Notes: a model not told the origin generated them from the letters alone. A stretch of 64,000 nucleotides of DNA from Acidimicrobiales bacterium (GCA_050008715.1 JBEKMC010000005.1:2473-66472); one strand, 5' to 3'; counted from the stretch's first letter, positions 6,414 through 33,140 are shown. Numbers and translations: made by a program.

Positions 6414-7256
6414 CTACTGCGACGGCGCCGTCGTCGCGTCCGCGAGCCTGGACCGCCGCCCCTGACCGCGGCGACGGGCGACGGCCGTGCCGGCAAGCGC
6501 CGTGCCATAGCTGACGACGCCGAGCGTCCCGACGAAGAAACCCACCGGCCACTGCGACACATACGACGCCGCCACGGCCACCCAGACGGTGGCGAGGGCG
6601 ATGAGGACGGAGAGCCCCATTGCGCGGCTCGGTCGCGCCGTCAGCAAACGAGCAGACGCCGCCGGGGCGATCATCAAGCTGAACATGAGGAATGCCCCGA
6701 CCACCGGCACCGTCATCGTCGTCGCCAACGCGACGATCAAGAGAAAGCACAGCTCCATCAGCGACGAGCTGACGCCGCGGGCCTCGGCGACATCTCCGAG
6801 AACCGACGACAGGAGCAAGGGCCGGTAGCACACCGCGATTGCGGCGACGCACACCACGCCGAGTACCGCCAGCGGCACGAGCTGTCCGGCGCTCACGCCG
6901 AGCACTTCCCCGAACAGGAGCGAGTAGACCTCCGGGGCGTACTCGACGCTCATCGAGAGGAAGAGCGCACCGAGCCCGAGCAGCACGACGAGGGAGAGCG
7001 CGGTGGCCACGTCAGGCCGGCCGCGCCGGCCGAGCCAACCGATGCCGAGGGCGCCGAGGACTGCGAAGACGCCGAGACCGAGCAGCGTGTTGGCCCCGAC
7101 GAGGCTGGCGCCGGCCGCTCCGGCGAAGGCTCCTTGGGGAACGGCATGGGCGGCAAAGGCCGAGCCTCGCAGGACTGCGAAGAAGCCGACCACGCCGGCG
7201 ATGACCGCCACGAGGGAGGCTGCGATCCACGTGTCGGTCATGAAGCTCGAGAACAT
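6414..7256 (-). CDS. Metal (Zn/Mn) ABC transporter permease
   Basis: ABC-3/ZnuB-like hydrophobic protein (F.AHA, LLFGEVLGV, AEARGV). Confidence 0.9.
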   Translation of the reverse strand: MFSSFMTDTWIAASLVAVIAGVVGFFAVLRGSAFAAHAVPQGAFAGAAGASLVGANTLLGLGVFAVLGALGIGWLGRRGRPDVATALSLVVLLGLGALFLSMSVEYAPEVYSLLFGEVLGVSAGQLVPLAVLGVVCVAAIAVCYRPLLLSSVLGDVAEARGVSSSLMELCFLLIVALATTMTVPVVGAFLMFSLMIAPAASARLLTARPSRAMGLSVLIALATVWVAVAASYVSQWPVGFFVGTLGVVSYGTALAGTAVARRRGQGRRSRLADATTAPSQ

Positions 7257-7270
7257 GCTCGTCCAGTGCC

Positions 7271-8149
7271 CTAGGAGACCGGCGTCGCCGGGCGGCGGGT
7301 GCGCGTGAAACCGGAGAGCAGGTAGGCGGCGAAGATCAGGACGACCACGAAGAAACTGACCGGCCAGCCCCGTCCAGCCGGAGGCCAGCTATGGCTGTCG
7401 TAGGCGAGCACGATGCCGAGCCAGGTCGCACCGATACCGATGAGGCCGGCGGTCACCATGGCGCGGCCCGGCCGGCTGGTGAGACGAAGTGCGGTAGCCG
7501 CCGGCCCGATGAGCAGGGCCGTGCTGAGCACGGCACCGATCGTGATGGCGGCGAGGGCGACGGCGAGGGCCGTGGCGGCGAGGTAGCAGACCCCGACGAG
7601 TCGGACGGGGACACCGCGCGACGACGCCATGTCGGCGTTGAGCGAGCTCAGCAGGAGCATGCGATAGCAGGGGAGGACGATGGCGAGTACGAGCAGGCCA
7701 CACAGCGCGGCGATCACGGCCGTGCTGTGGTCGATGACGAAGATCGAGCCGAACAGGACCGTCATGGAGGCGCCCGTCGTGGTCGAGCTCGTCGTGTCCA
7801 GGTAGAGGAACAGCGCAGCGAGCCCGAGTACGCCCCCGAGCACGATGCCCGTCGCCACATCGCGGCCCCTCGCCCGCTGTACGCCGATCATCTCCATGGC
7901 GGACGTGGCCGCCAGCCCCATGACGACGAAACCCCAGATGGGATTGACCCCGAGAAGGAACGCGCCCGCGCCGCCCGTCGTGCTCACGTCCGAGAAGGCG
8001 TGGCCGGCGAACGACTGCCCGCGGATGACCGTGAAGACCCCGACCGGCCCGGACACGACCGACACGACCGCTCCGAGCACCAGTGCCACGTGCACCGCCG
8101 AGCTGTCGAAGAAGCCGGCAGCGAACAGGGGCTGGAGGAAGTGGCCCAT
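7271..8149 (-). CDS. Metal (Zn/Mn) ABC transporter permease (second paralog)
   Basis: RGQSFAGHA, LFGSIF, ASSRGV motifs; multiple TM segments. Confidence 0.9.
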   Translation of the reverse strand: MGHFLQPLFAAGFFDSSAVHVALVLGAVVSVVSGPVGVFTVIRGQSFAGHAFSDVSTTGGAGAFLLGVNPIWGFVVMGLAATSAMEMIGVQRARGRDVATGIVLGGVLGLAALFLYLDTTSSTTTGASMTVLFGSIFVIDHSTAVIAALCGLLVLAIVLPCYRMLLLSSLNADMASSRGVPVRLVGVCYLAATALAVALAAITIGAVLSTALLIGPAATALRLTSRPGRAMVTAGLIGIGATWLGIVLAYDSHSWPPAGRGWPVSFFVVVLIFAAYLLSGFTRTRRPATPVS

Positions 8150-8151
8150 GG

Positions 8152-9000
8152 TCAGTCGGGAGGCGGGAGGACGGTGATGTCGTGGGTGTCCCCGCCGGCG
8201 TCGATCCCGGCGCCCGACACGACGAGCACGCGGCCGTGCAGCCGCAGGACGTCGACGTGGTGCCCGTAGAGAGCGCTCAGCACTTCGGATCGCACGACCT
8301 CGTCGGCGGTCCCGCTGACCGCCCTTCCGTTGGCGATGTAGACGATGCGGTCCATCACGGGAAGGAGCGTGTTCACCTCGTGGGCCGAGATGAACACGGC
8401 GATGCCCTGTTCCCTCGCCACGCTGCCCAGCAAGTCGACGACCTCCTGAGCGCTTCGCAGGTCGAGGTTGGCGAGCGGTTCGTCGAGGAGTAACAGCTTG
8501 GGGCGGCTGATGATGGCATGGGCGATGAGGACGCGCTGCTGCTCCCCGCCGGAGAGCGTGCCGACCCGCGCGCGGCCGAACTCGCCGGCACCGACGGCTT
8601 GCAGCGCATCGTCCACGAGCTGCTCCCGGCGGCGGGACCGAAACGGTATCCCGAGCCGGTGCCCATCGAGGCCGAGCGCCACGACGTCTCGGGCGCGCAG
8701 CGGCAGGTCAGGGTCGAGCAGGAACTTCTGCGGCACGTAGCCGATCACCGGGTGCCGCCGGTCGTGCACCCCGCCCGCCACGACGACCGATCCGTGCTGG
8801 GTCGGCTGGAGGCCGAGCACCACGCGCAAAAGCGTGGTCTTGCCGGAGCCGTTCGGACCGATGAGGCCCGTTACCTCGCCGGCGCGCAGCGTGAAGGCGA
8901 CGTCGTGCAGCACCTCGCGCCCCGCGAAGGAGACACTGACGTCGTCGACGGCGAGGACCTCGTCGCCGGATCGCGTCGGGGGCGGAGGTGCCCCCGTCAT
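8152..9000 (-). CDS. Metal ABC transporter ATP-binding protein
   Basis: Walker A GPNGSGKT, LSGGEQQR signature, LLLLDEP Walker B. Confidence 0.95.
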   Translation of the reverse strand: MTGAPPPPTRSGDEVLAVDDVSVSFAGREVLHDVAFTLRAGEVTGLIGPNGSGKTTLLRVVLGLQPTQHGSVVVAGGVHDRRHPVIGYVPQKFLLDPDLPLRARDVVALGLDGHRLGIPFRSRRREQLVDDALQAVGAGEFGRARVGTLSGGEQQRVLIAHAIISRPKLLLLDEPLANLDLRSAQEVVDLLGSVAREQGIAVFISAHEVNTLLPVMDRIVYIANGRAVSGTADEVVRSEVLSALYGHHVDVLRLHGRVLVVSGAGIDAGGDTHDITVLPPPD

Positions 9001-9938
9001 AGCCGAGTGGTCGAAACGTTGGAGGCGAGAGCCTTGCGGAGCGCCCCGACCTCGGCCAGCATCCAGCTCTGGTAGTCGTACCCGGACGGCATCGTCTCGT
9101 AGACGGCGACGACGGGGACGCCGGCTTGTTGCGCCTGTGCGAGGAACGACTGGGTGATCGAGTCTGTGACTTGCTCGTTGTAGAGGAACACCCTCACGTG
9201 ATGCCCGTCGAGGAGGCTCTCCTCTGTCGACACGTCCTGCGGGGACGGGTCGACGCCGTTCATGATGTCGGCCTGCAACGACCAGGGGGTCCGGTTCTGT
9301 AGGCCGGCGGCTTCGAGCAGATAGTCGCCGACCGGCTCGGTCGTCGCCACCGGGGCGCCCGGGAAGTCAGCCTTCAGGGCGGCGATCGCGTGTGCCAACG
9401 GCGCCAGCGAAGCTTCGAAGGCACCGGCGCGGGCGTGAAAGAAGGCGGCATGACCTGGCTCGAGGGCTGCGAGATCAGTGGCGACTGCCTCCGCCACCGC
9501 CGGCATCGTCGCCGGCTGGTACCACAGGTGCGGGTTGGAGGTCGTCGTGCCGGACAGCCCGCTGAGGTCCTGGACGACGATGAGCTTGCGCCGCGGGTTC
9601 GGCGCCGCCGACTCGATCTTCGACATGAACGTGTCGTAGCCGAGGCCGTTCTGTACGACGAGCTCGGCTCCGCTCACCGCTTCGGCCACCTGCGGGCTTG
9701 CCTCGAAGGTGTGGGGATCGGTGTTCGGGTTGGACATGACGGCGGTGACGCTCACGTACGGACCACCGACCTGCGAGATCACGTTGGCGTACTCGTTCTC
9801 CGCGCCGACGGCGTCGATCACGCCGGCGGCGCCGGAGCTGGTCCTCGAGCAGCCTGTCGCGCTCAATGCGATCGCCACGACGGCGCCGGCGATGCGCAGC
9901 GGCCGACCGGTACGTCGGCCATGTCGTCTCCTGGGCAT
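8997..9938 (-). CDS. Metal (Zn/Mn) ABC substrate-binding lipoprotein
   Basis: Arg-rich signal and ATGC lipobox; DPHTFE, NPHLWY, TEPV motifs of TroA/ZnuA family; start at ATG 9938 is an estimate. Confidence 0.9.
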   Translation of the reverse strand: MPRRRHGRRTGRPLRIAGAVVAIALSATGCSRTSSGAAGVIDAVGAENEYANVISQVGGPYVSVTAVMSNPNTDPHTFEASPQVAEAVSGAELVVQNGLGYDTFMSKIESAAPNPRRKLIVVQDLSGLSGTTTSNPHLWYQPATMPAVAEAVATDLAALEPGHAAFFHARAGAFEASLAPLAHAIAALKADFPGAPVATTEPVGDYLLEAAGLQNRTPWSLQADIMNGVDPSPQDVSTEESLLDGHHVRVFLYNEQVTDSITQSFLAQAQQAGVPVVAVYETMPSGYDYQSWMLAEVGALRKALASNVSTTRL

Positions 9939-9958
9939 AATGAGAACGATAACCATTC
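9938..9958. promoter_or_regulatory. Putative Zur/Fur-family operator
   Basis: TAATGAGAACGATAACCATTC, an AT-rich imperfect palindrome (AATG..CATT) resembling actinobacterial Zur boxes, abutting the SBP start codon. Confidence 0.6.
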
Positions 9959-10047
9959 GCACTTGGGCGGGCAACCGCCGGACACCCGTCGACTAGTCTC
10001 ACCTCCGTGGTGCAGGGGGTCGAGACCAGCGTGACCAGCGGCTCTCG

Positions 10048-10884
10048 ATGAGCACCAGCACGGACGATCCCCAGACGTCGTCGTCGGCACGTCCGGTCGA
10101 CCGAGCGGCGGCCTTTGCTGCCGGCCCGACCAAGATCCCCCCGCGCGTCATCGTCATCGGCCTTGCCGTGATCGTCGCACTCGCCCTGCTCGGAATCCTG
10201 GGTGAGCGCTTCTTCTCGAGCGTGGGGCTCAACCCCGTGGCCCCGAAGTCCCCGCCGAAGGCATCGCCGACCACCCTGCCGGCAGGGATACCGCAACTCG
10301 ACGCCCCGCTCTCCGCTTTCATGGGGATCAAGGCGATGACACCGTTGGCGGCGCCCGGTTTCTCGCTCGTCGATCAGGCGGGCAAGGCCGTAAGCCTCGC
10401 CCGCCAACACGGCAAGGTTGTCGTGCTCACGTTCTTCGACGACAGCTGCAGCGACATCTGCCCGGTGCTGGAGGCGGAGATTGCGGCCGCCGCCACCGAC
10501 CTCGGGCGCTCGTCGGACCGGGTGGTGTTCCTCACGGTGAACACCGATCCGATGAGCCCCGTCGTGAGCGCGACATCGCCCGCGGTCAGCGATTCGGCCC
10601 TGAGCAACGTCACCAACTGGCATCTCCTCGGCGGTTCGCTCGCCGCCCTCGACCGCGTCTGGCGTGACGACGGCGTATCGGTCGCCGTCTCGCCGGCGAG
10701 CCGGATCGTTGCTCACAACGACGTGATGTACTTCATCGGCCCAGCTGGCCGCTTCGCCTACGAGGCGGTCCCGTACTCGAACGAGAGCCAGCTCGGCATC
10801 TTCAGCCTGCCGGCGGCGAACATCACGCGGTGGGGACACGGCATCGCCGAGTATGCCGAGAAGCTGCTGCGGAGTTCTCCGTGA
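10048..10884 (+). CDS. SCO1/SenC family copper chaperone, membrane anchored
   Basis: N-terminal TM; FSLVDQ, CSDIC (CxxxC) and distal His (AHND). Confidence 0.88.
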   Translation: MSTSTDDPQTSSSARPVDRAAAFAAGPTKIPPRVIVIGLAVIVALALLGILGERFFSSVGLNPVAPKSPPKASPTTLPAGIPQLDAPLSAFMGIKAMTPLAAPGFSLVDQAGKAVSLARQHGKVVVLTFFDDSCSDICPVLEAEIAAAATDLGRSSDRVVFLTVNTDPMSPVVSATSPAVSDSALSNVTNWHLLGGSLAALDRVWRDDGVSVAVSPASRIVAHNDVMYFIGPAGRFAYEAVPYSNESQLGIFSLPAANITRWGHGIAEYAEKLLRSSP

Positions 10885-11525
10885 CCGACTCCGATCCGAA
10901 CCCCGAGCTACGGGCGCCCGCGAAGCCCCCTTGGTACCGGCGGCGCGCCATTCTTTTGAGCCTCGGGGTCGCCATCGTGCTTGCCATCACGGTGATCACG
11001 GACCTGCCGACACACACCTCGATCGCCGCCCAGGTGTCGGAAGAGACGACGGTCCTCAACGAAGTCACGTCCGACGCGGCACCGTGCGTGGCCGCGGTGG
11101 GCGAGGCATTCGGCTTCTATGCCGACGTGACGAAGGGCTCCCTCACACCGTCCGAACAGGCGAGCCTGCCGGCGCTGCTCCGGGACGACCAGGCGTCGTG
11201 CTCGTTCACGAGCGAGTACGTCTACGACCTGTCAGGCATCGAAGTCCCTGGAACAGCCGCCGGCAGGGACGTGGGTGGCCTCGTGAGCACGATCACACTC
11301 TGGGTCACCTCCGATGCACTTGCCGCCATCGATGCCATCGACGAGCTGACGACCGACCCGACGAACGCGACGCAGGTGGCGGCGCTCGACAAGGCCGAAC
11401 GGCTGCTCGCCTCTGACCGGGCTTCGGTCAACGCGGAGCTTCACGCAGCCGATGGGGCGCTCGGAGGGGCCCACCTCCCCAGTCCAGGGCTGCCGGCCCT
11501 CCCGTCGCCTGCCGCCGACAGCTGA
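10881..11525 (+). CDS. Membrane-anchored helical hypothetical protein
   Basis: GTG overlapping the SCO stop (GTGA); one N-terminal TM; two Cys. Confidence 0.7.
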   Translation: MTDSDPNPELRAPAKPPWYRRRAILLSLGVAIVLAITVITDLPTHTSIAAQVSEETTVLNEVTSDAAPCVAAVGEAFGFYADVTKGSLTPSEQASLPALLRDDQASCSFTSEYVYDLSGIEVPGTAAGRDVGGLVSTITLWVTSDALAAIDAIDELTTDPTNATQVAALDKAERLLASDRASVNAELHAADGALGGAHLPSPGLPALPSPAADS

Positions 11526-11574
11526 GCCACCCGCACGGGCCGACTTCGCTCGTTGCGGGATCCGCGCTGCACGC

Positions 11575-12474
11575 TCAGCCGGCGTGCCCGCTTCCGGGCC
11601 GGGCGACGTCGCCGATCGAGATGGCGGGACCGAAGCTACGGCGCCGGTTCTCACGCACGAGGCGGTGCAGGCCCTGGTCCGGATCCTCGTCAGCCCTGAG
11701 CCAGGCCACAAGGTTCCAGAACACGACCGGCACGTACGCAGACGCCGCCGCGAACCACAGCACGAACGTCACGATCTCCTGGTCTGCGGCAAAGCTCAGG
11801 GAGCTGCCGGCGAGCGCATGGTGATAGCTCACGTACATCGAAGCGTGAGACAGGCCGACGAGGTAGGCCGTAATCCAGATGGTCCACATGGCGACGGCAG
11901 CGAGGGCGATGCGCTTCGGGCGAGCGAGCCGCGGGACGAGCGGAGGTGACTCCACCAGCTCGAGCCACAACGCCGCTCCACCCGCGATGAGACAGACGGC
12001 CTCGACGAGCACGAGCCAGGGGTGTCGTACAAGCGCGTTGACCACCGCCGGGGTTCTCGCGGCGGTGACGAGGGCCATCTCGACGAGGAGCACAGTCACG
12101 GCTCGGGCGAAGCCAAGATGGCGGTGGCGTGCTGTCGCCAGGCGGTCGATCAGCCGCGCTGAAGCAGTGGTGCCGGCAGACGGCTCGAATGACCCGGCGC
12201 CGGACCCTCCGTTGGAGAGCCGGAGGAATCGCCACGGTGCCCCGAGCACGAGGAGGGCGGGGACGACGATGGCGAGGACGGAGAACCGGAGCGCCTCGAA
12301 ATACTCATAGCGCCGCGCTTCGGTCGCAAACGGTGGCACGAGGACGACCAGCACCAGCACCGCCGCCGCGCAGGCCAGCGATGGTCGCACCCAAGGAGGA
12401 GGCACCACCGGCCGCTCTTCGGCGGCCACGCCGCTCAATGGGAGGGTCGGCGCTGGAAGAACAGCCAGATGCAC
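11575..12474 (-). CDS. ctaG: Caa3-type CtaG cytochrome oxidase assembly factor (divergent)
   Basis: PALLVLGAPW and ADQEI..VLW motifs; multi-TM; in cox operon; start uncertain. Confidence 0.7.
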   Translation of the reverse strand: MHLAVLPAPTLPLSGVAAEERPVVPPPWVRPSLACAAAVLVLVVLVPPFATEARRYEYFEALRFSVLAIVVPALLVLGAPWRFLRLSNGGSGAGSFEPSAGTTASARLIDRLATARHRHLGFARAVTVLLVEMALVTAARTPAVVNALVRHPWLVLVEAVCLIAGGAALWLELVESPPLVPRLARPKRIALAAVAMWTIWITAYLVGLSHASMYVSYHHALAGSSLSFAADQEIVTFVLWFAAASAYVPVVFWNLVAWLRADEDPDQGLHRLVRENRRRSFGPAISIGDVARPGSGHAG

Positions 12475-12551
12475 ACGGCGAAGAGCGTCCCGACGGGTAT
12501 GGCGAATGTCATCGCCTGGGCAGCGACAATCGAGCCGGTCGCGATGATCAT
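12435..12551 (-). CDS. 38-aa single-TM protein, probable small oxidase subunit
   Basis: GGAGGAG RBS then MIIATGSIVAAQAMTFAIPVGTLFAVCIWLFFQRRPSH, directly after subunit III. Confidence 0.6.
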   Translation of the reverse strand: MIIATGSIVAAQAMTFAIPVGTLFAVCIWLFFQRRPSH

Positions 12552-12589
12552 CTCCTCCACCTTTCGTCCCACGACTGCTGAGCCGCGGC

Positions 12590-13270
12590 TCAGATCACAT
12601 AAAACAGTACCCAAAACGCCAGCGACATCAAGGCCATGAATCCCCAGAAGTAGGCGCATCCTTCGAGGTTTGCCCGGAACAGCCGGGCCACCGGCTGCGT
12701 CGAGCGAGCTGGGCCGCCGTCCTGTGCAACGGCACGACGCAACCGCATCGCGCGGGCGAGCAACGTCTCCAACCAATACGTCCCGCACAGGAGCATGGCG
12801 ACGTTCAGAACGGCCCAACCGATGAAGCACGACGCGTAACCGCTCGAACCGGGGTAGAAGGGAAGATTCGTGAGCTGCCAGATCTGGAGCCCCACGGCGA
12901 CGAGCCCGCCGGCGACGGCCGTCCACCCGGCTACCTCCCAGTCCAGCGAGGGGCCTCGGCGCAGGCGGAAGATGCCGTAGGCGTTCAAGCCGGCGGCCAC
13001 GACGGCGATCACGAAGATGGCCGTGCCGGCCCCGATCGGAGCGGTGACGCCGCCCGGTCGCCATAGTTGATCGCTGTCCACCGACCGGAGGTAGAAGTAC
13101 GCGAAGGCCAGGGACGCGAAGGTGAAGACACCGATTCCGATCAGAAGTCGTCCACCGGTCCAGATCGCGCCCTCAGCCGATCGAAGCTCGTACTCGACCT
13201 CTTCGGCTGACTGTTGCAGCAGGTCGACTCGGGCATTGGGCCGACCAGCCGGCATCACATCGTCACTCAT
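12590..13270 (-). CDS. Heme-copper oxidase subunit III (short form)
   Basis: FASLAFAYFYLR, GYASCF motifs; ATGA overlap with subunit I. Confidence 0.8.
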   Translation of the reverse strand: MSDDVMPAGRPNARVDLLQQSAEEVEYELRSAEGAIWTGGRLLIGIGVFTFASLAFAYFYLRSVDSDQLWRPGGVTAPIGAGTAIFVIAVVAAGLNAYGIFRLRRGPSLDWEVAGWTAVAGGLVAVGLQIWQLTNLPFYPGSSGYASCFIGWAVLNVAMLLCGTYWLETLLARAMRLRRAVAQDGGPARSTQPVARLFRANLEGCAYFWGFMALMSLAFWVLFYVI

Positions 13271-15243
13271 GCGGGCAGTCCCCCTGGGTCAGGATCAGCG
13301 GCTCTTGCGATGGTCTCAGCCGAGGGCACGCTCGCCCCGACGGTCTCGATCGATCCGGACCCGAGGTCGGCTACAGGCGGAGCGCCAGGCTCGCTGTAGT
13401 GATACGGGTCGGCGAGGACGACCGGGATGCGGTCGAAGTTGTGGGGAGGCACGGGGGTGGCCGTCTGCCACTCGAGGCCGAGCGAGTCCCAGGGGTTCGC
13501 CGACGCCAGCTTCGGGTCGATGAAGATCGACCAGACGAAGTTGGCGATGAAGATGAGGAACGAGGCCCCGAGCAGGAAGGCGCCGACGGACGAGATGTCG
13601 TTGAGCGTCTGCAGGTTGGAGGCGTACTCGAAGACCCGGCGAGGCTGGCCGAGCAGGCCGACGAGGAAGAGCGGGAAGAACGTCACGTTGAAGAAGACGA
13701 ACATCGTCCAGAAGTGCCACTGGCCGAGCTTCTTGCTGAGCGTCTTCCCGGTCATCTTCGGCAACCAGAAGTAGAGGCCGCCGAAGAAGGCGAACACGAG
13801 GCCGCCCATGATCGTGTAATGGAAGTGCGCCATCACGAAGAAGCTCCCGTGCACGGTGACGTCGACGGGCACGTCGGAGAGGAACACGCCCGTCACACCG
13901 CCGATGAGGAAGTTGAAGTACATCCCCATGGCGAACAACATCGGCACCTCGAACCGTATCTTTGCTTTCCACAAGGTCCCCAGGCCCACGAGGAAGATGA
14001 ATCCCGTCGGTATCGAGATCAGCTCAGTCGTCAGCATGAAGAGTGGGCGCATGTCCGGGTTGATGCCGCTCTGGAACAGGTGGTGCTGCCACACGAAGAA
14101 GGACAGCAAGGCGACGCCGATCATGCCGGCGGCGGCGACGCGGTAGGCGAACAAGGGTTTGCGCGTGAACACCGGGAGGATCTCACCGACGATGCCGAAG
14201 CCCGGCAACGCCATGATGTAGACCTCCGGATGGCCGAAGAACCAGAACAGGTTCTGCCAGAGGAACGAGCTGCCACCGTGCTCGTTCACGTAGAACGCCG
14301 TCTGTACCGTCCGGTCGAGAATGCCGAGCAGGCCCGCCACGACAAGGGTCGGAGTTGCGAGCACGAGCAAGGCCGCGGTGGCGAGCACGGACCACACGAA
14401 GATCGGGATGCGTCCCCACGTCATGCCTGGCGCGCGGTAGTTGATGATCGTCGCGGCCAAGTTGAAGCCGGCGGTGATCATCCCGAGCCCGATCACCGCG
14501 AATCCGACGAGGTAGGAGTCCATCCCCAGCCCGGCCTGGGTCTGCAGCGAGGCGTAGCCGGTCCATCCGGTCGGGAACCCGCCCAAGGGGAGGGCGGAGA
14601 GGATGACGAGGTAGCCGGCGGCGAAGGTCCAGAGCGAGAAGGCCTCGACGCGGGGGAAGGCCATCTTCCGGGAGCCGATCATCAGCGGTATCAGCCAGTT
14701 GCCGAGCGGCCCGATGACGATGGACGACGCCATCATCATCATGATCGTCCCGTGCTCGCCGACCGTCGAGATGTACTGCCCCGGCCCGAAGACGTGGCTC
14801 GTGGGGCTCAACAGCTCGGTGCGGATACCCATGGCGAGGATGCCGCCCGTGAAGAAGAACAGCAGCACCACGATCGTGTACTGCAGTCCGACGACCTTGT
14901 GGTCGAGCGTCGGGCGGAAGTAACGGGTCCAGCTGTGTGACGGGAGCTGAGGCAACGGCTCACGCCCGATCAGCTTGGCTGCCGGGTAGTTGAACATGCC
15001 GGCACCGGCGAGCCACCCGACAACGCCGATCGACAGGCCGAGCACGATCGCCACGTTGTTCTGACCGTTGTCCTGCACAACTGTCTGGTTGGCGGCGATG
15101 ATGTTGCCGAAGAGATGGCCGAGGGCATAACCACCGACCGCTCCTGCGAGCGCCCACACGGCGTTCGGGCTGAAGAACCCGGCCGTCGGTCGTAGGCGCT
15201 CCTCAGGCGGCGAGTCGATGATCGCTTGCGTATCTACGCTCAT
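13267..15243 (-). CDS. ctaD: Heme-copper (cytochrome c) oxidase subunit I with N-terminal TM extension
   Basis: DHKVVG, EHGTIM, GWTGY, WFFGHPEVY, WQHH, AHFHY, GQPRR motifs. Confidence 0.96.
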   Translation of the reverse strand: MSVDTQAIIDSPPEERLRPTAGFFSPNAVWALAGAVGGYALGHLFGNIIAANQTVVQDNGQNNVAIVLGLSIGVVGWLAGAGMFNYPAAKLIGREPLPQLPSHSWTRYFRPTLDHKVVGLQYTIVVLLFFFTGGILAMGIRTELLSPTSHVFGPGQYISTVGEHGTIMMMMASSIVIGPLGNWLIPLMIGSRKMAFPRVEAFSLWTFAAGYLVILSALPLGGFPTGWTGYASLQTQAGLGMDSYLVGFAVIGLGMITAGFNLAATIINYRAPGMTWGRIPIFVWSVLATAALLVLATPTLVVAGLLGILDRTVQTAFYVNEHGGSSFLWQNLFWFFGHPEVYIMALPGFGIVGEILPVFTRKPLFAYRVAAAGMIGVALLSFFVWQHHLFQSGINPDMRPLFMLTTELISIPTGFIFLVGLGTLWKAKIRFEVPMLFAMGMYFNFLIGGVTGVFLSDVPVDVTVHGSFFVMAHFHYTIMGGLVFAFFGGLYFWLPKMTGKTLSKKLGQWHFWTMFVFFNVTFFPLFLVGLLGQPRRVFEYASNLQTLNDISSVGAFLLGASFLIFIANFVWSIFIDPKLASANPWDSLGLEWQTATPVPPHNFDRIPVVLADPYHYSEPGAPPVADLGSGSIETVGASVPSAETIARAADPDPGGLPA

Positions 15244-15279
15244 GAAGTTGTACCCAATCGTCCGGCGTGATGAGGGAAC

Positions 15280-16230
15280 TTAAGAGTTCGGCTTGGTTGC
15301 GCCGTATGTCTCGACGCTGCTGTACGGGTCCTTCGTGTCGGGGTAGAACCCACCGTCGGAACCGTTGGCGTCCGGCGTGTAGGTGTAGGCGAACGCCGGC
15401 AGCGTGGCGGTCAAGGGAGCCAACTGCGTCTCGGTCGTCTTCGCCCATTGCTCGAAGGCCGATTTGCTCACGACCTTCCCATAGTCGTACATCGCCCCGT
15501 GCCACAGCCCGCACAGCTCGTCACACCGAACGGTGAAGACGCCGAGCTGCTTGGTCGTCGTGAAGGCGACGTTGTCCGATCCCGGGTTGGCGTCGGCCTT
15601 GACACCGATCTGGTAGGCCCAGAAGTCGTGGATCACGTCGAGCGACGTCACGTGGAATTCGATCGTGGTGTCGTCGGGCAACATCAGGTTCGGCGTCTCG
15701 AAATTGCCGAACGTGGGGTACCGGTAGGTGAAACGCCACTGCTGGGCGATCACCTGCACCGGCAGGATCGTCGCCGACGACGGCGTCCAGAGAGGCGACG
15801 GCCCCTGCCCTCCGCCGGATCCGGTCGTGACCGCAAGCTCGACAGTACCGAAGACGAAGAGCGACAGGACGACGACGGTGGTGGTTGCGATCCAGATGAT
15901 CTGGACACGCAAGTTGCCTCGAGCCGCCGGCCCACCGACCGGCTCGGGCACTCCGGGCCTCGTCGAGCGCCACATGACGATCGCGTAGAGCATGTAGACC
16001 CAGACACCGATAAGGACGGGCAGGGCGATGAGCAACAGGACCGTGAAGTCGACGGAGTCCGAGGTGGCCGTGTCCGACATGCGGCCCGGCGGGACATGCG
16101 GACCGACCAGGAAGGCGAACAGCACGTCCGCCACGACGGACAACACGATCCAGATCGTGAGGATCCGCCGGAAGTGGTGTGGCTCGGCCGATCCCTCCGG
16201 GGCAGCCACGCTGTCCGCGACGGCGCTCAT
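15280..16230 (-). CDS. ctaC: Cytochrome c oxidase subunit II (CuA)
   Basis: QQWRFTYRY; DVIHDFW and CDELCGLWHGAM CuA ligands; ATG 16230 overlaps upstream stop. Confidence 0.93.
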   Translation of the reverse strand: MSAVADSVAAPEGSAEPHHFRRILTIWIVLSVVADVLFAFLVGPHVPPGRMSDTATSDSVDFTVLLLIALPVLIGVWVYMLYAIVMWRSTRPGVPEPVGGPAARGNLRVQIIWIATTTVVVLSLFVFGTVELAVTTGSGGGQGPSPLWTPSSATILPVQVIAQQWRFTYRYPTFGNFETPNLMLPDDTTIEFHVTSLDVIHDFWAYQIGVKADANPGSDNVAFTTTKQLGVFTVRCDELCGLWHGAMYDYGKVVSKSAFEQWAKTTETQLAPLTATLPAFAYTYTPDANGSDGGFYPDTKDPYSSVETYGATKPNS

Positions 16231-16907
16231 GACACCACCTTGAGGAAGCCGTCCATGTATCCGACCGACTGCATCGGGCCTCCGTTGCCGTAGAGGTACC
16301 CGAGCCCGCAGGGCACGAAGCACTGCCAGGGATACTCGCCGGGTCCGGGAGTGACGAACGAGAACGTGATGACGTTGTGGGCCAGGTTGGTGGTGCAAGG
16401 CGCCGAGTTGCAGAAGTTCGACGCACTGCCGTTGACGCCGGACAACGGGACGTTGATCCCGAGCGTCGGGATCGTGAAGGTGTGGGCGACACCGTTGCCG
16501 TTGTTGGAGTTGATCAACGAAGTCGACTTGCCGTTCAGCGACATCACACCTCCGCTGGTGCCCTGTACCAACCCCATCAGCTGGTTACGGAGCGGACTGC
16601 CCGAGTCGTACTCGTCGATCGTGACGTTGATCGTCGTGTTGGCGGGCAGGTCCCACAGCGTCGTGTGCACCCACTGGCCGCTCGCCGGATCCTTGGTCAG
16701 GTAGGAGACCCACGTCGGGTGGGCGCCGAACCCGATGGCCCCGACGGTCTGCAGCGTCATGTCGACCGGCTGGCCGGCCTGGTGACCGGAGGTGAAGTCG
16801 ATCGTGGGCGGTGACGAGCGCAGGAAGGCCGCTGCCAGAAACACGATGAGCGCGACGCCGATGCCCACGATCACGGCTGCGATCCCCAGCCTTCCCGAAC
16901 GAGACAA
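16227..16907 (-). CDS. Membrane-anchored cupredoxin-fold protein with atypical Cu ligand set
   Basis: N-terminal TM; AHTFTIP..GEYPWQCFVPCG..GPM..GYMDGFLKV C-terminal cupredoxin pattern. Confidence 0.75.
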   Translation of the reverse strand: MSRSGRLGIAAVIVGIGVALIVFLAAAFLRSSPPTIDFTSGHQAGQPVDMTLQTVGAIGFGAHPTWVSYLTKDPASGQWVHTTLWDLPANTTINVTIDEYDSGSPLRNQLMGLVQGTSGGVMSLNGKSTSLINSNNGNGVAHTFTIPTLGINVPLSGVNGSASNFCNSAPCTTNLAHNVITFSFVTPGPGEYPWQCFVPCGLGYLYGNGGPMQSVGYMDGFLKVVS

Positions 16908-17037
16908 CGCGCCCTCCCCCTCTCGCCGGGATCGCGCGGCCCGCCGTCCGGCCGACCCTCGGGAGGATCTACCGCACCGACGACCTGAGCTGCCCCCCGG
17001 TCGCTTCCAGCTCCGTCACCATGACTTCGCCGAGGTC

Positions 17038-17066
17038 ACCCTATTGGCCTTTGACCAGCCGGTCAA
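17038..17066 (-). promoter_or_regulatory. SigA-type promoter of cupredoxin-cox operon with overlapping palindrome
   Basis: Minus strand TTGACC-N17-TAGGGT; TTGACC-AGCC-GGTCAA inverted repeat at 17051-17066. Confidence 0.7.
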
Positions 17067-17103
17067 TGCTATTTACCAAATCTTGGGCTACGGCACGAGG
17101 CGA

Positions 17104-18003
17104 TCACGCCGGAGGGCGGAAGTCCTCGAGCGGCATGGCGGTCCTGCCGCGCATGATTCGCTCGGCCAAGCTCGAGATGCCCCCGTCCTCGGCAACGGCT
17201 CGCCTGATGACGACGACGAGGGCAGGCACCGCCCAGAAGTCGCCGCACACCCACAAGATGGCCGCACCGATCTGCTGGTCGGCAAACGGGGCCATCGAGA
17301 CGCCCGCGACGTGGGCGTAGACGTTGTACCAGGAGCCCGTCGCAAAGATGCTGAGCGACATGGCCAGCACGAACATGATGACGTTCGTCGAGACGATCGC
17401 GCCGATCTGCCAGGCCGTCGAGGCCTTCACCTTGAACGGGAAGGACGGGATGATCTGCAGCCAGAAGAGCACACCGGTCACGAAGAAGCTGGAGTGCATC
17501 AGCCAGATGTGCACGCTCTGGTTCCGCTCCGCCAGGTCGAAGAGTGCCGGCACGTGCCAGACGACCATGGCGATGTTGAACAGCGCGAGTGCGGTCCACC
17601 GGTTCGAGAGAGCGCGTCCGGCCGCACGCAGGAAGCGGGCGTTGCGCCCGAGGAGCAACGCTCGCCCGACACGCCGGCGTGGGCCAACGGGCAGGGCGAA
17701 CAGGAACGGCAACCACGGGGCTCCTGCGACGACGAGGATCGGGGCGAAGAAGCCGATGAGGATGTGCTCGACCATGTGCACGAAGAAGTAGTCGCTCGCG
17801 TAGTAGTCGATCGGCGACACCACGGCGACGAGCAGGACGGCGAGGCCCGCGTAGAACTCGAGTGCCCGCTTCCTCCGCTGCCGGGTCCGTCGCGGATCCG
17901 ACCGCCGCTGCAGGTGGGCCAGCCCGATCTCGTGAACGATCACGATGACTGCGACGACGACGATGAACGGGTCGAAGCTCCAATGGTCGACGACGTAGCT
18001 CAT
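17104..18003 (-). CDS. ctaG: Caa3-type CtaG cytochrome oxidase assembly factor
   Basis: SPIDYYA..FFVHMVEHIL, WHVPALFD, MHSSF, DQQIGAAILW; ATGA coupling. Confidence 0.9.
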   Translation of the reverse strand: MSYVVDHWSFDPFIVVVAVIVIVHEIGLAHLQRRSDPRRTRQRRKRALEFYAGLAVLLVAVVSPIDYYASDYFFVHMVEHILIGFFAPILVVAGAPWLPFLFALPVGPRRRVGRALLLGRNARFLRAAGRALSNRWTALALFNIAMVVWHVPALFDLAERNQSVHIWLMHSSFFVTGVLFWLQIIPSFPFKVKASTAWQIGAIVSTNVIMFVLAMSLSIFATGSWYNVYAHVAGVSMAPFADQQIGAAILWVCGDFWAVPALVVVIRRAVAEDGGISSLAERIMRGRTAMPLEDFRPPA

Positions 18004-19208
18004 GAAGACGAGCCGAAGGGAACTGGGACCCTCATCGCCTGCAGTTTGCCCCAGGCGCCGGTGGCGGCGCTCCACCGCCAGTCGATGAAGGTCGAGGCGC
18101 CCGTCACCGCCAGGGCGTCGACGACGGCACCGGCTTCGATGGACACGGTCGTCGTTCCCGGCGGCAGGCCCGCCAGCGGCCGCCACTGCCCGTGCGGCAC
18201 GACGGTCTCGAGCTCGAGCGACCCGCCGGCCCTGCGGACCACGACGAACACCTCTCCGTCACCGGTGATGCCGGAGGACACAATGCCGGCGCCGGCGAAA
18301 TCGAGCGGCGGGGAAAGCGCCCACGACGCGCCCGAACGCCAAGCAGCGACCACGTCGGTCGCTGCTCCTCGTCCGACCCCAACCAAGGCGGCGGCGCCGG
18401 AGGTGCCGTGGCCGGCGCCCCAGAGGCGGAGCACACCGGCCGGTTGAAGAGCCAGGGATCCGGTGAGTCGGGGACCAACCAGCGCCCAGCCACCGGCCGT
18501 CGCCGCGAACACGCCGACCAGGCCAGGTTTGCTGCAGTCGGCCCCGACGAGCTCGGTACCGTCGCTGGAGAAGGCCACCGAGGTCAGGGAGCTGACTTGA
18601 CATGACGAAGCCCCGCTCGAGCTCTCGAGGGCGCTTTGCGCCACCAGATCCGTCCAGCTCAGGATGCTTCCAGAACTCTCGACGACCTCGGCACCTTGCC
18701 CAGAGTGCGCCCGCAGGACGGCCGCGAGCCCCCCACGGACCGAGCTGGCAAGGGCATCCGGACCTGCGGCCAGCGCGCCCGGCACGATCCCCTGTGCCCA
18801 CGTGCCCTTCGTCGTGTTGCGTTGTGCGAGCGGCGAGTAAGTGAGCAGGTTGGTTGGCTCGATACCCGCCGTGAGCAGGTCGCCGGCGGCCGCGATCGTC
18901 AGGCCGCCGTTGAGGGCGACACCCGGAGGCGTCACGAGCGACCAACGCGTGCTCGCCAGCGGTCGGAAGAACAGCTCCCAGAACGTGTTCGCCGGCTGCC
19001 CGAGGATCCCCATCGGGAGCACCGCCCAGGTGCCCGACGACGTCACGAGCGTGCTGTTGAACGGGATGCTTGTCGCCACGACGCCGGTCCTCGGCGACGC
19101 CGGCGGCGGAGCGGCCTTCGAGCACGATGCGAGCAGGGCGACGGTGACCAGGGCGAGCATCAGCGAGGCGACGGCCGGAGGAGTCGACCGCCGGGTCCTT
19201 CGCTTCAT
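18000..19208 (-). CDS. Hypothetical lipoprotein (beta-rich)
   Basis: Basic N-terminus plus LLASC lipobox; coupled to both neighbours by 4-nt overlaps. Confidence 0.75.
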   Translation of the reverse strand: MKRRTRRSTPPAVASLMLALVTVALLASCSKAAPPPASPRTGVVATSIPFNSTLVTSSGTWAVLPMGILGQPANTFWELFFRPLASTRWSLVTPPGVALNGGLTIAAAGDLLTAGIEPTNLLTYSPLAQRNTTKGTWAQGIVPGALAAGPDALASSVRGGLAAVLRAHSGQGAEVVESSGSILSWTDLVAQSALESSSGASSCQVSSLTSVAFSSDGTELVGADCSKPGLVGVFAATAGGWALVGPRLTGSLALQPAGVLRLWGAGHGTSGAAALVGVGRGAATDVVAAWRSGASWALSPPLDFAGAGIVSSGITGDGEVFVVVRRAGGSLELETVVPHGQWRPLAGLPPGTTTVSIEAGAVVDALAVTGASTFIDWRWSAATGAWGKLQAMRVPVPFGSSS

Positions 19209-21067
19209 GAACCCATGATGCGCTTCATCTGCTCAGACAAAAGGGTGGCGAACGAAGAGCGGGAGGCGGAACCGACGCCCGTGTCGGTGCTGAGCACCTC
19301 GCGCATCTGCCCGGACGCATCGATGATGTAGGCGATGTCGCTGTGGGCGACCATGGCGCCGGCTCCCGGCACCGCCACCTGGACCGCATAGTCGTCCCAG
19401 ATGCGGCTCAGGGCGGCGGTCGTCCCGGTCAGGTACAGCCAATTGCTGAGGTGCTCGAGGCCCTCCTGCCGGTCGAAGGCCACCGTGAAGGCCGTGGCCC
19501 GGTAGATCGGGTTGGCGACGACCGCGACGAAGACCGTGCGGCTGGCGGCCGAGCCCAGCATCGAGTCCGCCTCCTTGAACTCCTGCGCGATCAGCGGGCA
19601 GTCCGACGTGCACACGGGATCGAGGAAGGTCAGTGCGACGGTCCTGCCACGGAGGCCGGCGAGCGAGACCGCCTGCCCGCTCTGGTCGACGAGCTGGAAA
19701 CCTGGCGCCGGCAAGTCGACCACGTTCGGGTTGCCGTCGACGGCGAGGGCGAGAATTGGATCGGCGTTCGGGTTGGCGGAGGCAGCCGCCATCGGAGCCG
19801 CCCCGAGCACGAGCAGTGCCAGCGCCCCGACCGACGCCGCCACCCGAAGTACATAGGAGGGCCGGACGCCGGCGGGCACTCGTATCCGATCGCGCCAGCT
19901 CGCGCGAGCGACCGGCTCCGTGGAGAGAACCACCTCCGGCTCGGCCACGGCCGGCGCCGTCACCGCGACCGGTACCCGCACGAGCGCGACGTACCCACTG
20001 ACGAGAACGAGCATCATCGGCAGCATGCTGTTGGGGTCGGTCCCCACACCACCGAGGAACCCGAGATCCTCGACCAGCACCCAATCCGCCAGCCCGAGGA
20101 TCACTGCAGCGATGACCGCAAATCGAGCCAGGTCCGGTCGACCCGTGGAGAGGACGAGGCCCATGGACGCCAACACGGCGACCACGAAGAGGTTGACCGC
20201 CCAGCCGTGAGCCGCGTCGAGCGAGCCGAACGACCCGAGCACGGAGGACATCGTGTGCGGCTGTGAGGTGAGCGCCATCTGGCGGACCATCCCGAGCAGC
20301 GCGCCCGAATGCCCGTTACCGGCCGCCCCGCGCCAGAAACCACGATCCGGCCATGCCTGAAGGACCGCCATCCCGGCGAAGAAGACCCCGAAGGCTCGCA
20401 GCAGCCGGCGACCAAGGGCGGGCGACGCCCAGGCTCGTTCGGGCAGTGCCAGCAGTGCCCCCGCCAAGCAATAGAAGAGTGCAGCACCCGGTGCCCCGAA
20501 CAGCCAGGACAGCCCGGGCGCAAAGATGCCCCCGAAGGCTTCCCCGAAGACCCACACCACGAGCCCCCAGCCGAGCGAGGCCGCTCCGGCGAAGCGCGTC
20601 CAGCGACCGCGCGGGGCGACGAGCAGCAGGACGCCGAGGGCGATCTGGATCCACACGGTAGAGACGGCTGCCTCGACGGGGTGGTTCGTCCAGGTGGTCA
20701 CGCCGAAGTTCACAAGATGCTGCACCCAGGACGGCGACGTGGCAGACGCCGGCTGGAGGACGCTCGAAGGCAGCCCGAGGGGCATGTCAGGCTGGATCTG
20801 TAGGACACCGTCCACGATCCAGAGCACGGCGAAGCCGATCCGCAAGACCCGCCGTGCAAGCGGTTCGGGATCGCTGGGCGGCACGTCCACCGGCTCGGCG
20901 TCGCCGTCGAGCAGGCGCCGGATTTGCGTCATCCGCACGACGCTCGATCCGAGGAGGAACACGCTGAGAACCACGCCGACGACAAGGAGTTGGTGCATCA
21001 GCAAGGAGTGGAAGGCCGCGATCACGACGGGATTGTTCGCCTGAAGGTGGCGCCCCATCCCTGTCAC
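19205..21067 (-). CDS. Multi-TM membrane domain fused to C-terminal SCO domain
   Basis: About 9 TM segments then FQLVDQ, CTSDC (CxxxC), AHSD. Confidence 0.85.
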   Translation of the reverse strand: MTGMGRHLQANNPVVIAAFHSLLMHQLLVVGVVLSVFLLGSSVVRMTQIRRLLDGDAEPVDVPPSDPEPLARRVLRIGFAVLWIVDGVLQIQPDMPLGLPSSVLQPASATSPSWVQHLVNFGVTTWTNHPVEAAVSTVWIQIALGVLLLVAPRGRWTRFAGAASLGWGLVVWVFGEAFGGIFAPGLSWLFGAPGAALFYCLAGALLALPERAWASPALGRRLLRAFGVFFAGMAVLQAWPDRGFWRGAAGNGHSGALLGMVRQMALTSQPHTMSSVLGSFGSLDAAHGWAVNLFVVAVLASMGLVLSTGRPDLARFAVIAAVILGLADWVLVEDLGFLGGVGTDPNSMLPMMLVLVSGYVALVRVPVAVTAPAVAEPEVVLSTEPVARASWRDRIRVPAGVRPSYVLRVAASVGALALLVLGAAPMAAASANPNADPILALAVDGNPNVVDLPAPGFQLVDQSGQAVSLAGLRGRTVALTFLDPVCTSDCPLIAQEFKEADSMLGSAASRTVFVAVVANPIYRATAFTVAFDRQEGLEHLSNWLYLTGTTAALSRIWDDYAVQVAVPGAGAMVAHSDIAYIIDASGQMREVLSTDTGVGSASRSSFATLLSEQMKRIMGS

Positions 21068-21424
21068 GTGATCCTCGCCTCCTTTTCACTGCCTGCTGGT
21101 CAGTGTCGCAGCGCCGGCGGCGATCATCGCACAAGAAATTGTTCGCAATCACGCACCACCCGAAGCGTCCCGGGGCCTCATGGTCCAGGTCGGAAGCGCC
21201 GATACATTCTGTATGAGATGCAACGTTCGCGCCCTGCGCACCTCCACGCGCCAGCGGCGCATCGACGTCACGCCTCGAGAGCGCACCGACGTCGCCCGAC
21301 CGGGGCGCGGGTCGACACCGCCTGTCCAGCTGAGATGAACGGACTGACTCGGCCGGGACGCGACCTCTGGGCTCGGCCGTTCGGCGACGCCGTCGCGGAC
21401 GCCGCACGCATCGTTCGATCGAGG

Positions 21425-33015: not shown

Positions 33016-33098
33016 TCGGGGTCCTCTCCGACGAGGCCGTCAATCGACTCCCGGATGAGATCCGCGTGACCGATATGGCGTATCAGATCGCTGTCCAT
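33012..33098 (-). pseudogene. Internally deleted DinB/DUF664 gene
   Basis: MDSDLIRHIGHADLIRESIDGLVGEDPE matches the DinB C-terminal RHxGHADxxRExIDG motif. Confidence 0.7.
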
Positions 33099-33120
33099 GA
33101 ACGCGATGGTAATCTCTATC

Positions 33121-33139
33121 CCGGACGAAAGGCTTCCGG
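33121..33139. promoter_or_regulatory. Putative WYL regulator operator
   Basis: CCGGA-N9-TCCGG palindrome between divergent starts. Confidence 0.45.
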
Positions 33140-33140
33140 A

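Follow-up and report, generated by a model that had tools for sequence, protein, structure and literature searches.

What does a cupredoxin-fold protein do at the head of a cytochrome oxidase operon in an Acidimicrobiales bacterium? The question is raised by positions 10048-21067 of the stretch analysed here, 64,000 nucleotides from this genome (GCA_050008715.1, JBEKMC010000005.1:2473-66472; hereafter the window), in which the genes of a haem-copper oxidase are gathered with genes for copper-assembly proteins. The answer that we favour, and that we consider reasonably probable, is that the locus encodes a distinct A-family oxidase, alternative to the housekeeping one and provided with a copper entry subunit of its own, and that this enzyme would serve general aerobic respiration in peat and soil Actinomycetota beside the bcc-aa3 system. 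The core of this enzyme would be formed by subunit I, subunit II, a remote subunit III and a 38-aa subunit, and the same operon would supply the cupredoxin-fold protein, with its translation coupled to that of subunit II. The uncultured bacteria of soil and peat include Acidimicrobiales and Solirubrobacteraceae among their commonest members, and the respiration of these groups affects carbon turnover there.

An oxidase operon beside the housekeeping set

The oxidase operon is read from the minus strand in the order cupredoxin-fold protein, subunit II, subunit I, subunit III, 38-aa protein and a CtaG-type assembly factor (CtaG2). Its first gene (16227..16907) encodes a membrane-anchored protein of 226 aa, which belongs to an unnamed family and was assigned by its predicted fold; the start codon is a TTG preceded by GGGGGAGGG. 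Subunit II (15280..16230, PF00116 with 54.7 bits) has a complete CuA site and no haem c motif, and most likely starts at 16230, within the open reading frame (ORF) 15280-16398 that gave the match. It is followed by subunit I, a divergent A-family haem-copper oxidase (13267..15243, COX1 with 432 bits against a cut-off of 34.8), by a remote subunit III homologue (12590..13270), by the 38-aa protein (12435..12551) and by CtaG2 (11575..12474), a divergent Caa3_CtaG protein (PF09678, 61.3 bits against a cut-off of 27.7) whose start is uncertain because its longest ORF overlaps the 38-aa gene. Stop and start codons overlap as ATGA at two junctions inside the operon, from the cupredoxin-fold protein to subunit II and from subunit I to subunit III. 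These ORFs were chosen according to codon-position GC and family matches, in a window with a GC content of about 0.62-0.71, and ORF calls, Pfam matches and translations located all the genes that the original prediction had listed for 10048-21067.

The arrangement is widely kept. A synteny survey was carried out by tblastn of the window proteins over 80 related Acidimicrobiales loci, the best 80 of the 344 species-representative genomes that encode a relative of the cupredoxin-fold protein. The cupredoxin-fold protein and subunit II were found in all 80 loci, the gene of the former always directly before that of the latter, together with subunit I in 79, subunit III in 74 and CtaG2 in 74. Furthermore, the order cupredoxin-fold protein, subunit II, subunit I, subunit III recurs in one more Acidimicrobiia genome and in three genomes of other classes, where CtaG and Sco genes follow it, and the adjacency of the first two genes extends to other classes and to a divergent family (loci L108-L111 and L131). 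The core order of the operon that the original prediction had proposed was recovered in 74-80 of the 80 related loci and in the three other-class genomes. These counts indicate a gene arrangement far beyond chance and a package that is common to hundreds of uncultured soil species.

The oxidase is an additional one. Family scans over the contigs of the genome, which is 93% complete, gave exactly two COX1 and two COX2 matches. The second ctaC-ctaD-ctaE set lies on another contig (C90) with a dihaem cytochrome c (two CxxCH motifs), a QcrA-type Rieske protein and a cytochrome b, which is the usual actinobacterial bcc-aa3 arrangement. This contig also holds the only qcrB-type cytochrome b of the genome, with the QcrA-type Rieske gene beside it, and the two domains of its QcrC are the only cytochrome c family matches that the scan found in the genome. 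Neither a CxxCH ORF nor a qcr gene was found on the contig of the window, as the original prediction had noted for the cluster, and 15 other ORFs of at least 150 aa in the genome contain a single CxxCH, seven of them in non-cytochrome families and eight without a family. In five of five further carrier genomes, too, the cupredoxin-linked COX1 is an extra copy beside one to three higher-scoring COX1 copies. The genome check therefore bore out the idea of a second oxidase, with a separate bcc-aa3 locus on C90.

Subunit I and the housekeeping CtaD of the genome share only 43% identity. Against solved structures it scored 422 bits with mycobacterial CtaD, 394 with Bacillus aa3-600 and 371 with Thermus caa3, whereas the housekeeping copy scored 689, 497 and 494 bits with the same structures. 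It also falls below the NCBIfam cut-offs (564 against 670.75 for TIGR02891 and 479 against 880 for NF050116; the housekeeping copy reached 678 and 768, respectively), and it scored best on the generic TIGR02891 and not on the actinobacterial NF050116, the reverse of the housekeeping copy. With the other curated actinobacterial aa3 models (NF050117 and NF050119, of the same set as NF050116) subunit II gave 86.8 against a cut-off of 250 and subunit III had no match, the housekeeping counterparts giving 227.7 against 250 and 189.6 against 190. In a maximum-likelihood tree of 24 COX1 sequences (the two of the window's genome, all copies of the five carrier genomes, and eight loci), the 14 cupredoxin-linked sequences lie on one side of a branch with a Shimodaira-Hasegawa-like approximate likelihood ratio test (SH-aLRT) value of 100 and a stem length of 1.62; as no named outgroups were included, this tree shows the split from housekeeping CtaD and not the place among all A-family enzymes. 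The housekeeping CtaD of the window's genome groups with the housekeeping copies of two other Acidimicrobiia, and subunit I of the operon does not join them. In addition, in an even sample of the class, matches to this subunit I of at least 54% identity were found only in six genomes that carry the cupredoxin-fold protein, three unpublished genomes contributing only rows without a close match. The scores and the tree thus indicate that subunit I is a distinct, very divergent A-family lineage apart from housekeeping CtaD.

The cupredoxin-fold protein and its predicted place on subunit II

The translation of the first gene begins with a positively charged start followed by an N-terminal helix, so the cupredoxin domain should face outward, like the CuA site. 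The protein has no Pfam or NCBIfam match, and a relaxed Pfam scan (E up to 5) returned only noise. However, the AlphaFold2 (AF2) model is a beta-sandwich with a predicted local distance difference test (pLDDT) value of 76, and Foldseek matched it to cupredoxins only, rusticyanin being the top match (E 2.2e-5, target TM 0.45), followed by subunit II of ba3 and bo3 oxidases and copper nitrite reductase. These are likenesses at the level of fold, with 10-16% identity. A profile of the family compared with the sequences of the PDB detected no relation to any solved cupredoxin: 'Cupredoxin 1' (E 0.065) and auracyanin A (E 0.12) came closest, neither of them significant, although both alignments place H142 and C196 on the ligand positions of those proteins. 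Look-alikes in the ESM Atlas come from Dormibacterota (0.95), Chloroflexota (0.95) and Thermoplasmatota (0.92), and are leads only.

Among close relatives H42, H63, H142, C166, C171, C196, C200, M212 and M218 are invariant. In the wide family, down to 29% identity, only D101, G116, C196, P199, M212, M218 and G220 remain so, with H142 and C200 nearly invariant. The candidate metal loop is C196-FVP-C200-GLGYLYGNGGP-M212, which has no conserved His after the Cys and differs in this way both from the type-1 pattern (Cys-xn-His-xn-Met) and from that of CuA (Cys-x3-Cys-x3-His-x2-Met). From this conservation we infer that the protein binds copper through His142, Cys196, Cys200 and Met212 or Met218.

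The family is large and has so far gone without a name. Database searches returned 4777 relatives at E <= 1e-3; among the 120 listed, identities were 64-100% and all the named ones were annotated as 'hypothetical protein' of Acidimicrobiales metagenome-assembled genomes (MAGs). Only MAGs occur among the best 80 of the 344 carrier genomes; almost all have the label Acidimicrobiales, Acidimicrobiaceae or Actinomycetota and they come from projects on peat, bog, palsa, permafrost and soil, and no cultured carrier was identified among the named relatives and the carrier genomes. When sampled evenly, 16 of 300 Acidimicrobiia genomes carry the protein, clustered in a few families (12/13, 2/2, 1/1 and 1/3 genomes), and it was not found in other sampled families of the class (0/26, 0/35 and 0/65). 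In a sample of the phylum it was present in 6 of 400 genomes, including genomes of other classes. A profile built on the other-class proteins retrieved 4695 proteins at E <= 1e-20, of which the named ones belong to Solirubrobacteraceae MAGs; at the 50%-identity level there are 622 family representatives, 67 of them at E <= 1e-30, and the distant members sampled were again unnamed, one of them coming from a Streptosporangiaceae MAG. The searches thus delineate an unnamed, membrane-anchored cupredoxin-fold family whose thousands of metagenome relatives are all 'hypothetical'. In two carrier genomes, additional partial matches to the family stand in tandem outside the oxidase locus, in runs of three or four (G159:C15:11626-13862 and G143:C95:3110-6663).

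Several observations indicate that the protein belongs to the enzyme: its adjacency to subunit II in 80 of 80 loci, the recurrence of this adjacency in other classes, the ATGA overlap, and a degree of conservation similar to that of subunit II (59-83% identity between orthologues, compared with 54-83% for subunit II, 30-67% for CtaG2 and 32-64% for Sco). The predicted tie between the oxidase and an anchored copper-type protein is in this sense confirmed, by a cupredoxin-fold gene directly before subunit II.

In subunit II, the CuA ligands H201, C236, E238, C240, H244 and M247 are the same in all 22 sequences compared, and the protein has the entry residue Trp165 and a conserved C-terminal tail of 46 residues, invariant in the clade and absent from housekeeping CtaC. 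In CuA domains, the Trp of the QQW position is the electron-entry residue. We modelled the complex with three chains (subunit I 108-578, subunit II 20-316 and, as the scored partner, the cupredoxin-fold protein 1-226) and alignments of 22 rows. The docking score was 0.64 (0.63, 0.64 and 0.67 in the individual runs), compared with 0.39 for the best control and 0.00 for two controls with unrelated partners, and it exceeds a mark that was reached by 58 of 80 solved complexes and by 2 of 110 mismatched pairs. The runs share at least 52% of their contacts, and the pLDDT of the partner is at least 74. On the side of the cupredoxin-fold protein, the predicted interface is made by the most conserved loop of the family, 104-113 (S104-Q109), and by the Cys/Met loop 190-215; on the side of subunit II, by residues 161-168 (Q163, Q164 and W165), the CuA loop 241-249 and part of the C-terminal tail (270-289). 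The model thus supports a position of the protein on the CuA electron-entry face, where a donor sits.

The same placement would be expected of a copper chaperone, which would likewise dock, transiently, on the CuA loop. According to this explanation the protein would be a maturation factor for CuA (or CuB), handing Cu(I) to subunit II without being a stable, electron-carrying subunit, and the set of Cys-x3-Cys, His and Met is indeed typical of Cu(I) handling. Four other copper-assembly genes lie in the cluster, and a role in CoxB maturation has been raised for a cupredoxin in the part of the structural work on AcoP that was available to us (PMC10804444). Nevertheless, we consider this unlikely: the protein is conserved like the catalytic subunits, far above CtaG2 or Sco, its translation is coupled to that of subunit II, two Sco proteins are available for CuA, and the predicted interface includes the clade-specific tail of subunit II, which suggests a permanent partner. 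A non-redox role appears less probable still. The protein would in that case have a structural or protective function, as a subunit that keeps the extracytoplasmic face of the enzyme stable, for instance in acidic peat water, as has been proposed for AcoP. The canonical second His ligand is missing, the stretch was found mainly in peat and permafrost metagenomes, and AcoP has been reported, in the portion of the same article that was consulted, to maintain oxidase activity at acid pH (PMC10804444). However, C196, M212 and M218 do not vary, and H142 and C200 hardly do, down to 29% identity, which points to a metal site and not to packing, and the carriers include Solirubrobacteraceae and many general soil MAGs.

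The two remaining core genes are small or remote. Subunit III has no Pfam or NCBIfam match and its profile matched nothing among the PDB sequences at E <= 1, but aligned to the housekeeping CtaE with an hhalign probability of 90.7% (E 1.3e-6, 161 columns). The 38-aa protein has a single predicted helix and is by position a candidate small oxidase subunit, similar to subunit IV. A Shine-Dalgarno-like AAGGTGGAGGAG precedes its ATG, the family shares the motif Q.LT.AIPLGT...LWGFFQRR, and a related peptide lies directly after subunit III in 70 of the 74 loci when a sensitive search is used (a first search had given 5 of 80); its conservation indicates that this is a real gene.

Active site and proton channels of subunit I

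We compared 75 cupredoxin-linked subunit I sequences, including that of the window, with the housekeeping copy, column by column. The His ligands of haem a, haem a3 and CuB are kept (H164, H338, H387 and H388 in 75/75; H465, H473 and H475 in 73/75), as are the PRR motif and, in 75/75, GHPEVY, the A1-type motif with the D-channel Glu and the cross-linked Tyr. The active site is therefore, as judged from the alignment, intact. Proton uptake, however, would differ from that of a textbook aa3 oxidase: the Lys of the K channel is gone and a conserved run of Glu, Ser and Thr stands on the same helix, while the D-channel carboxylate of this subclade would be moved from the entrance Asp to the position of Asn139. 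In detail, PTGVK of the housekeeping copy is replaced by PTGF-I/L/V, with no Lys in any of the 75 sequences (Ile in that of the window), and upstream of PTG a Tyr and an Ala give way to TTELIS (Glu407 and Ser410) in 75/75. Before the HFH ligands, VHD is changed to VHG in 73/75, so that the Asp of the Mg site is a Gly. Finally, GAPDMAFPRLN becomes G-S/A-R-R/K-MAFPRxE, with Arg or Lys at the Asp position and Glu at the Asn position in 75/75; the window reads GSRKMAFPRVE, in which the entrance Asp is a Lys and the following Asn a Glu. By their motifs, we take the changed positions to be K362, D412, D132 and N139 of Rhodobacter sphaeroides.

The changes do not all have the same extent. Loci of other classes keep R-R...E (with one Q), the missing Lys, HG and STE. 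In the divergent module L131 (G155:C25:182000-200000), a side finding from small-genome Acidimicrobiia (1.3-2.2 Mb), the gene order is membrane-Sco, CtaG, cupredoxin, subunit II, subunit I, and the subunit I, 43% identical to that of the window, keeps the ordinary D...N but lacks the Lys and has HG. Moreover, A2-type oxidases (YSHPAVY) of other Acidimicrobiia families, at the three loci L128-L130, are also without the K-channel Lys and have a Glu nine residues upstream (..TEAIS.PTG[LI][IV]F), and no cupredoxin gene was found beside them. The Lys-less path is therefore wider than the module, and the Asp/Asn exchange narrower.

As to the consequences for pumping, the sections of the published work on engineered mutants that we could consult report that N139D (N131D; N99D in yeast) abolishes pumping with turnover kept or raised, and that the double mutant D132N/N139D restores pumping (PMC7196763). 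It follows that the natural pair need not mean a non-pumping enzyme, and by analogy a relocated D-channel acid would be compatible with proton pumping. The module changes residues that textbook models hold to be essential for proton uptake, and the natural pair of Asp to Lys/Arg and Asn to Glu would provide an evolutionary test of pumping models, which have so far been based on engineered mutants. Subunit I also has an N-terminal extension of about 100 residues (1-105), which is conserved, looks like two extra hydrophobic helices and contains an invariant His43 in the context G-x3-G-H-x2-G. The main text of the article found on Lys-less or variant haem-copper oxidase families makes no mention of Actinobacteria or Acidimicrobiia.

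Electron supply, accessory genes and relation to known oxidases

If the cupredoxin-fold protein sits on the CuA/Trp165 face of subunit II as modelled, it would pass electrons into CuA, from where they would follow the route to haem a, haem a3-CuB and O2. The dihaem QcrC, from the only bcc complex of the genome, is the most economical candidate for the upstream donor. The original prediction had called the oxidase cytochrome-c-free; this is true of the cluster and may not be true of the electron path, as QcrC could still be the upstream donor.

It had also proposed that the copper protein possibly takes electrons from Fe(II) or another inorganic donor, after the model of the rus operon of Acidithiobacillus, in which AcoP is encoded before coxBACD. 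An N-terminal anchor with a cupredoxin domain encoded directly before subunit II is an architecture similar to that of AcoP, the top Foldseek match is rusticyanin, and iron cycling is active in the peat and permafrost from which the sequences come. Nevertheless, we regard this as very improbable. AcoP, in the part of the structural report that was available, has an N-terminal anchor and a classical green type-1 site (His/Cys/His166/Met171, with a CX6H loop) and binds the oxidase (PMC10804444), whereas the present protein has no His-Cys-His-Met site and is not detectably related in sequence to AcoP or rusticyanin, and the 50 Foldseek matches listed do not include AcoP. No Cyc2-, Cyc1- or rusticyanin-like partner was recognisable: in the 93% complete genome the sole cytochrome c family match is QcrC, and the 15 single-CxxCH ORFs mentioned above belong to non-cytochrome families or to none. 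Outside the cluster the genes of the window are those of an ordinary heterotroph (dehydrogenases, an aminotransferase, major facilitator superfamily transporters, PhaC, regulators and a transposase). Most of the sampled Acidimicrobiia families gave no match to the module, yet it is present in Solirubrobacteraceae; hundreds of uncultured Acidimicrobiales of soil, peat and permafrost carry it and, as far as labels allow, it is common outside acidophilic iron oxidisers, a distribution that the original prediction had itself named as counting against it. Of that prediction, the idea of a second oxidase partnered by a copper protein stands, more firmly and more generally than it was put, and the link to iron is without support. 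In metagenome annotation, a 'cupredoxin next to cox genes' should consequently not be taken as a marker of iron oxidation.

The alternative oxidase is also represented in environmental libraries. Sequence nearly identical to 12435-16907 occurs in at least 20 runs of 17 studies (peat, permafrost, soil and unspecified metagenome); among those listed, at least half of the sampled words is present in six, and six are RNA libraries. Contigs from four metatranscriptome runs of peat and permafrost (95-99% alike) cover the genes of the 38-aa protein, subunit III, subunit I, subunit II and the cupredoxin-fold protein, and single contigs from RNA libraries bridge the latter two (15120-16904, 15478-17015 and 15486-16636). 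It is therefore likely that the oxidase operon is transcribed in situ. The contigs of three runs stop at 16977, 17008 and 17015, which hints weakly at a 5' end some 100 nt upstream of the start codon. The regions 17063-21200 and 9900-12160 were mostly uncovered, which is uninformative on the expression of the flanking genes since the runs were found with 12435-16907.

Several points weigh against an oxidase with a dedicated copper entry subunit. The ligand set lacks a second His and has no counterpart among characterised sites, confidence in the AF2 model is lowest at the candidate loop (pLDDT < 50 at 199-217), and Cys-x3-Cys with a His is also used by Sco chaperones, in a cluster with many chaperone genes. 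The docking differs in its alignments and its three chains from the cases on which the score was calibrated, a control with subunit I replaced still reached 0.39, and likeness to solved complexes of cupredoxin on cupredoxin or of cytochrome c on CuA could inflate the score. The R. sphaeroides numbering agrees with the offsets to chain 1m56_A, which is its sole check. The RNA evidence consists of assembled contigs from libraries that may contain DNA, and the runs were found with this very stretch. We advance only tentatively the bolder idea of a new copper centre, made by one His, two Cys four residues apart, a Met and possibly Asp101 (similar to CuA minus one His), in an obligate electron-entry subunit of a 'copper-copper-aa3' subfamily of Gram-positive soil bacteria, with a rewired, Lys-less K path and a D-channel carboxylate moved inward. 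If the protein is a true electron-entry subunit, this would be a Gram-positive bacterial case of a cupredoxin in the usual place of cytochrome c. The module has gone unannotated in hundreds of species, with a putative copper protein of atypical ligand set added to an A-family oxidase, and in the open-access literature (subscription journals and supplements being outside the search) we found no paper that joins Acidimicrobiia or Solirubrobacter, cytochrome c oxidase and a cupredoxin.

The copper centres of this oxidase would be loaded by two Sco and two CtaG proteins. Besides CtaG2, these are a Sco/SenC-type chaperone with an N-terminal membrane anchor (10048..10884, plus strand; PF02630 with 44.3 bits against a cut-off of 22.8), in whose translation a CSDIC motif and a downstream His are read; a second CtaG-type factor, CtaG1 (17104..18003, minus strand; Caa3_CtaG, PF09678 with 155.4 bits against a cut-off of 27.7), which most likely starts at 18003, within the ORF 17104-18186 that gave the match; and a fusion of 620 aa (19205..21067, minus strand), in which a polytopic membrane domain (residues 1-440, approximately) precedes a Sco/SenC domain (PF02630 with 38.9 bits, residues 456-588) with a CTSDC motif. 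The distal-His motifs of the two Sco proteins read AHND and AHSD. Between the fusion and CtaG1 lies a predicted lipoprotein of 402 aa with an LLASC lipobox read from its translation (18000..19208, minus strand), which has no family match, and the three genes, with ATGA overlaps at both junctions, form a translationally coupled set. An anchored helical protein (10830..11525), to which no function is assigned and which has no Pfam or NCBIfam match, shares the plus strand with the Sco gene, both convergent to the oxidase operon. It consists of a transmembrane helix and a helical bundle (AF2 pLDDT 86.7), with an invariant DLP, two Cys, W158, D162 and D196 in an alignment of 26 sequences, and Foldseek found nothing in the PDB at E <= 0.001 and listed generic four-helix bundles. 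A relaxed Pfam scan (E up to 5) likewise gave no match for the lipoprotein, the helical protein, subunit III, the 38-aa peptide and the membrane domain of the fusion, and none of these matches an NCBIfam model. In the 80 loci surveyed, Sco, CtaG1 and the membrane-Sco fusion were each found in 75, the helical protein in 72 and the lipoprotein in 36, always beside the fusion; Sco is mostly convergent to the oxidase operon and adjoined by the helical protein, and CtaG1 lies upstream of the operon in most loci.

Between CtaG1 and the operon there are 196 bp (16908..17103, ahead of the minus-strand operon) that are a possible promoter or operator region and contain a perfect palindrome, TTGACCGGCTGGTCAA, at 17051-17066. 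The pattern TTGAC-n-GTCAA is kept in merely 2 of 79 upstream regions, those of the two closest relatives, and consequently we claim no conserved operator. On the other side, a metal-uptake transporter recognised by Pfam (ZnuA, an ABC ATPase and two ABC-3 permeases, 6414-9974, minus strand) adjoins the Sco gene; as ZnuA was adjacent in only 1 of the 80 related loci, we do not count the transporter as belonging to the module, and it probably lies there by accident. Further away, the window contains two regulators of the helix-turn-helix, WYL and WCX type (33066-34109 and 40335-41330, plus strand) and an IS1595-family transposase (41704-42534, minus strand). One canonical cupredoxin is encoded elsewhere in the genome (C68:25170-25472; PF13473 with 44 bits and PF00127 with 25 bits), unlinked to either oxidase.

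How does this enzyme compare with known systems? Like AcoP-CoxBACD of Acidithiobacillus ferrooxidans, it would combine an aa3-type oxidase with an anchored, single-domain cupredoxin that is encoded before it and associated with it. In contrast to AcoP, however, the protein has a Cys-x3-Cys and no loop His, with no detectable similarity in sequence; the partners Cyc2, Cyc1 and rusticyanin are missing here, and the carriers are Gram-positive soil lineages. The closest solved relatives by score (422 bits) are the CtaCDEF enzymes of Mycobacterium and Corynebacterium, which are likewise of the A family, with GHPEVY, CuA in subunit II, no fused cytochrome c and a short subunit III of the five-helix type. 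Unlike them, the present oxidase is unlinked to qcrCAB and has the extra cupredoxin-fold gene, and its subunit I forms a separate clade without the K-channel Lys and the Mg-site Asp and with an altered D-channel entrance. The caa3 oxidases of Thermus and Bacillus, in which a cytochrome c domain is fused to subunit II, also have a dedicated electron-entry module permanently on the CuA face of an A-family enzyme, a position that the docking model suggests for the cupredoxin-fold protein, but here the module has the fold of a copper protein and not of haem c, and is a separate, anchored polypeptide, and subunit II contains no CxxCH. Cupredoxins replace cytochrome c as the partner of the oxidase in several archaea, such as sulfocyanin with SoxM and the halocyanin- and plastocyanin-like proteins of Haloarchaea and Nitrososphaerota. 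Cupredoxin clusters of Thermoplasmatota and Nitrososphaerota are among the Atlas look-alikes, as a lead only; the family described here is bacterial and, in contrast to the type-1 His/Cys/His/Met sites of the archaeal partners, it lacks the second His. Finally, the D channel resembles that of the engineered R. sphaeroides D132N/N139D, in which the carboxylate is likewise taken off the entrance and placed at the position of N139, and which pumps according to the part of the article consulted (PMC7196763). In the present enzymes the change is a natural one, with Arg or Lys and Glu in 75 of the 75 aligned sequences, and it is combined with the loss of the K-channel Lys.

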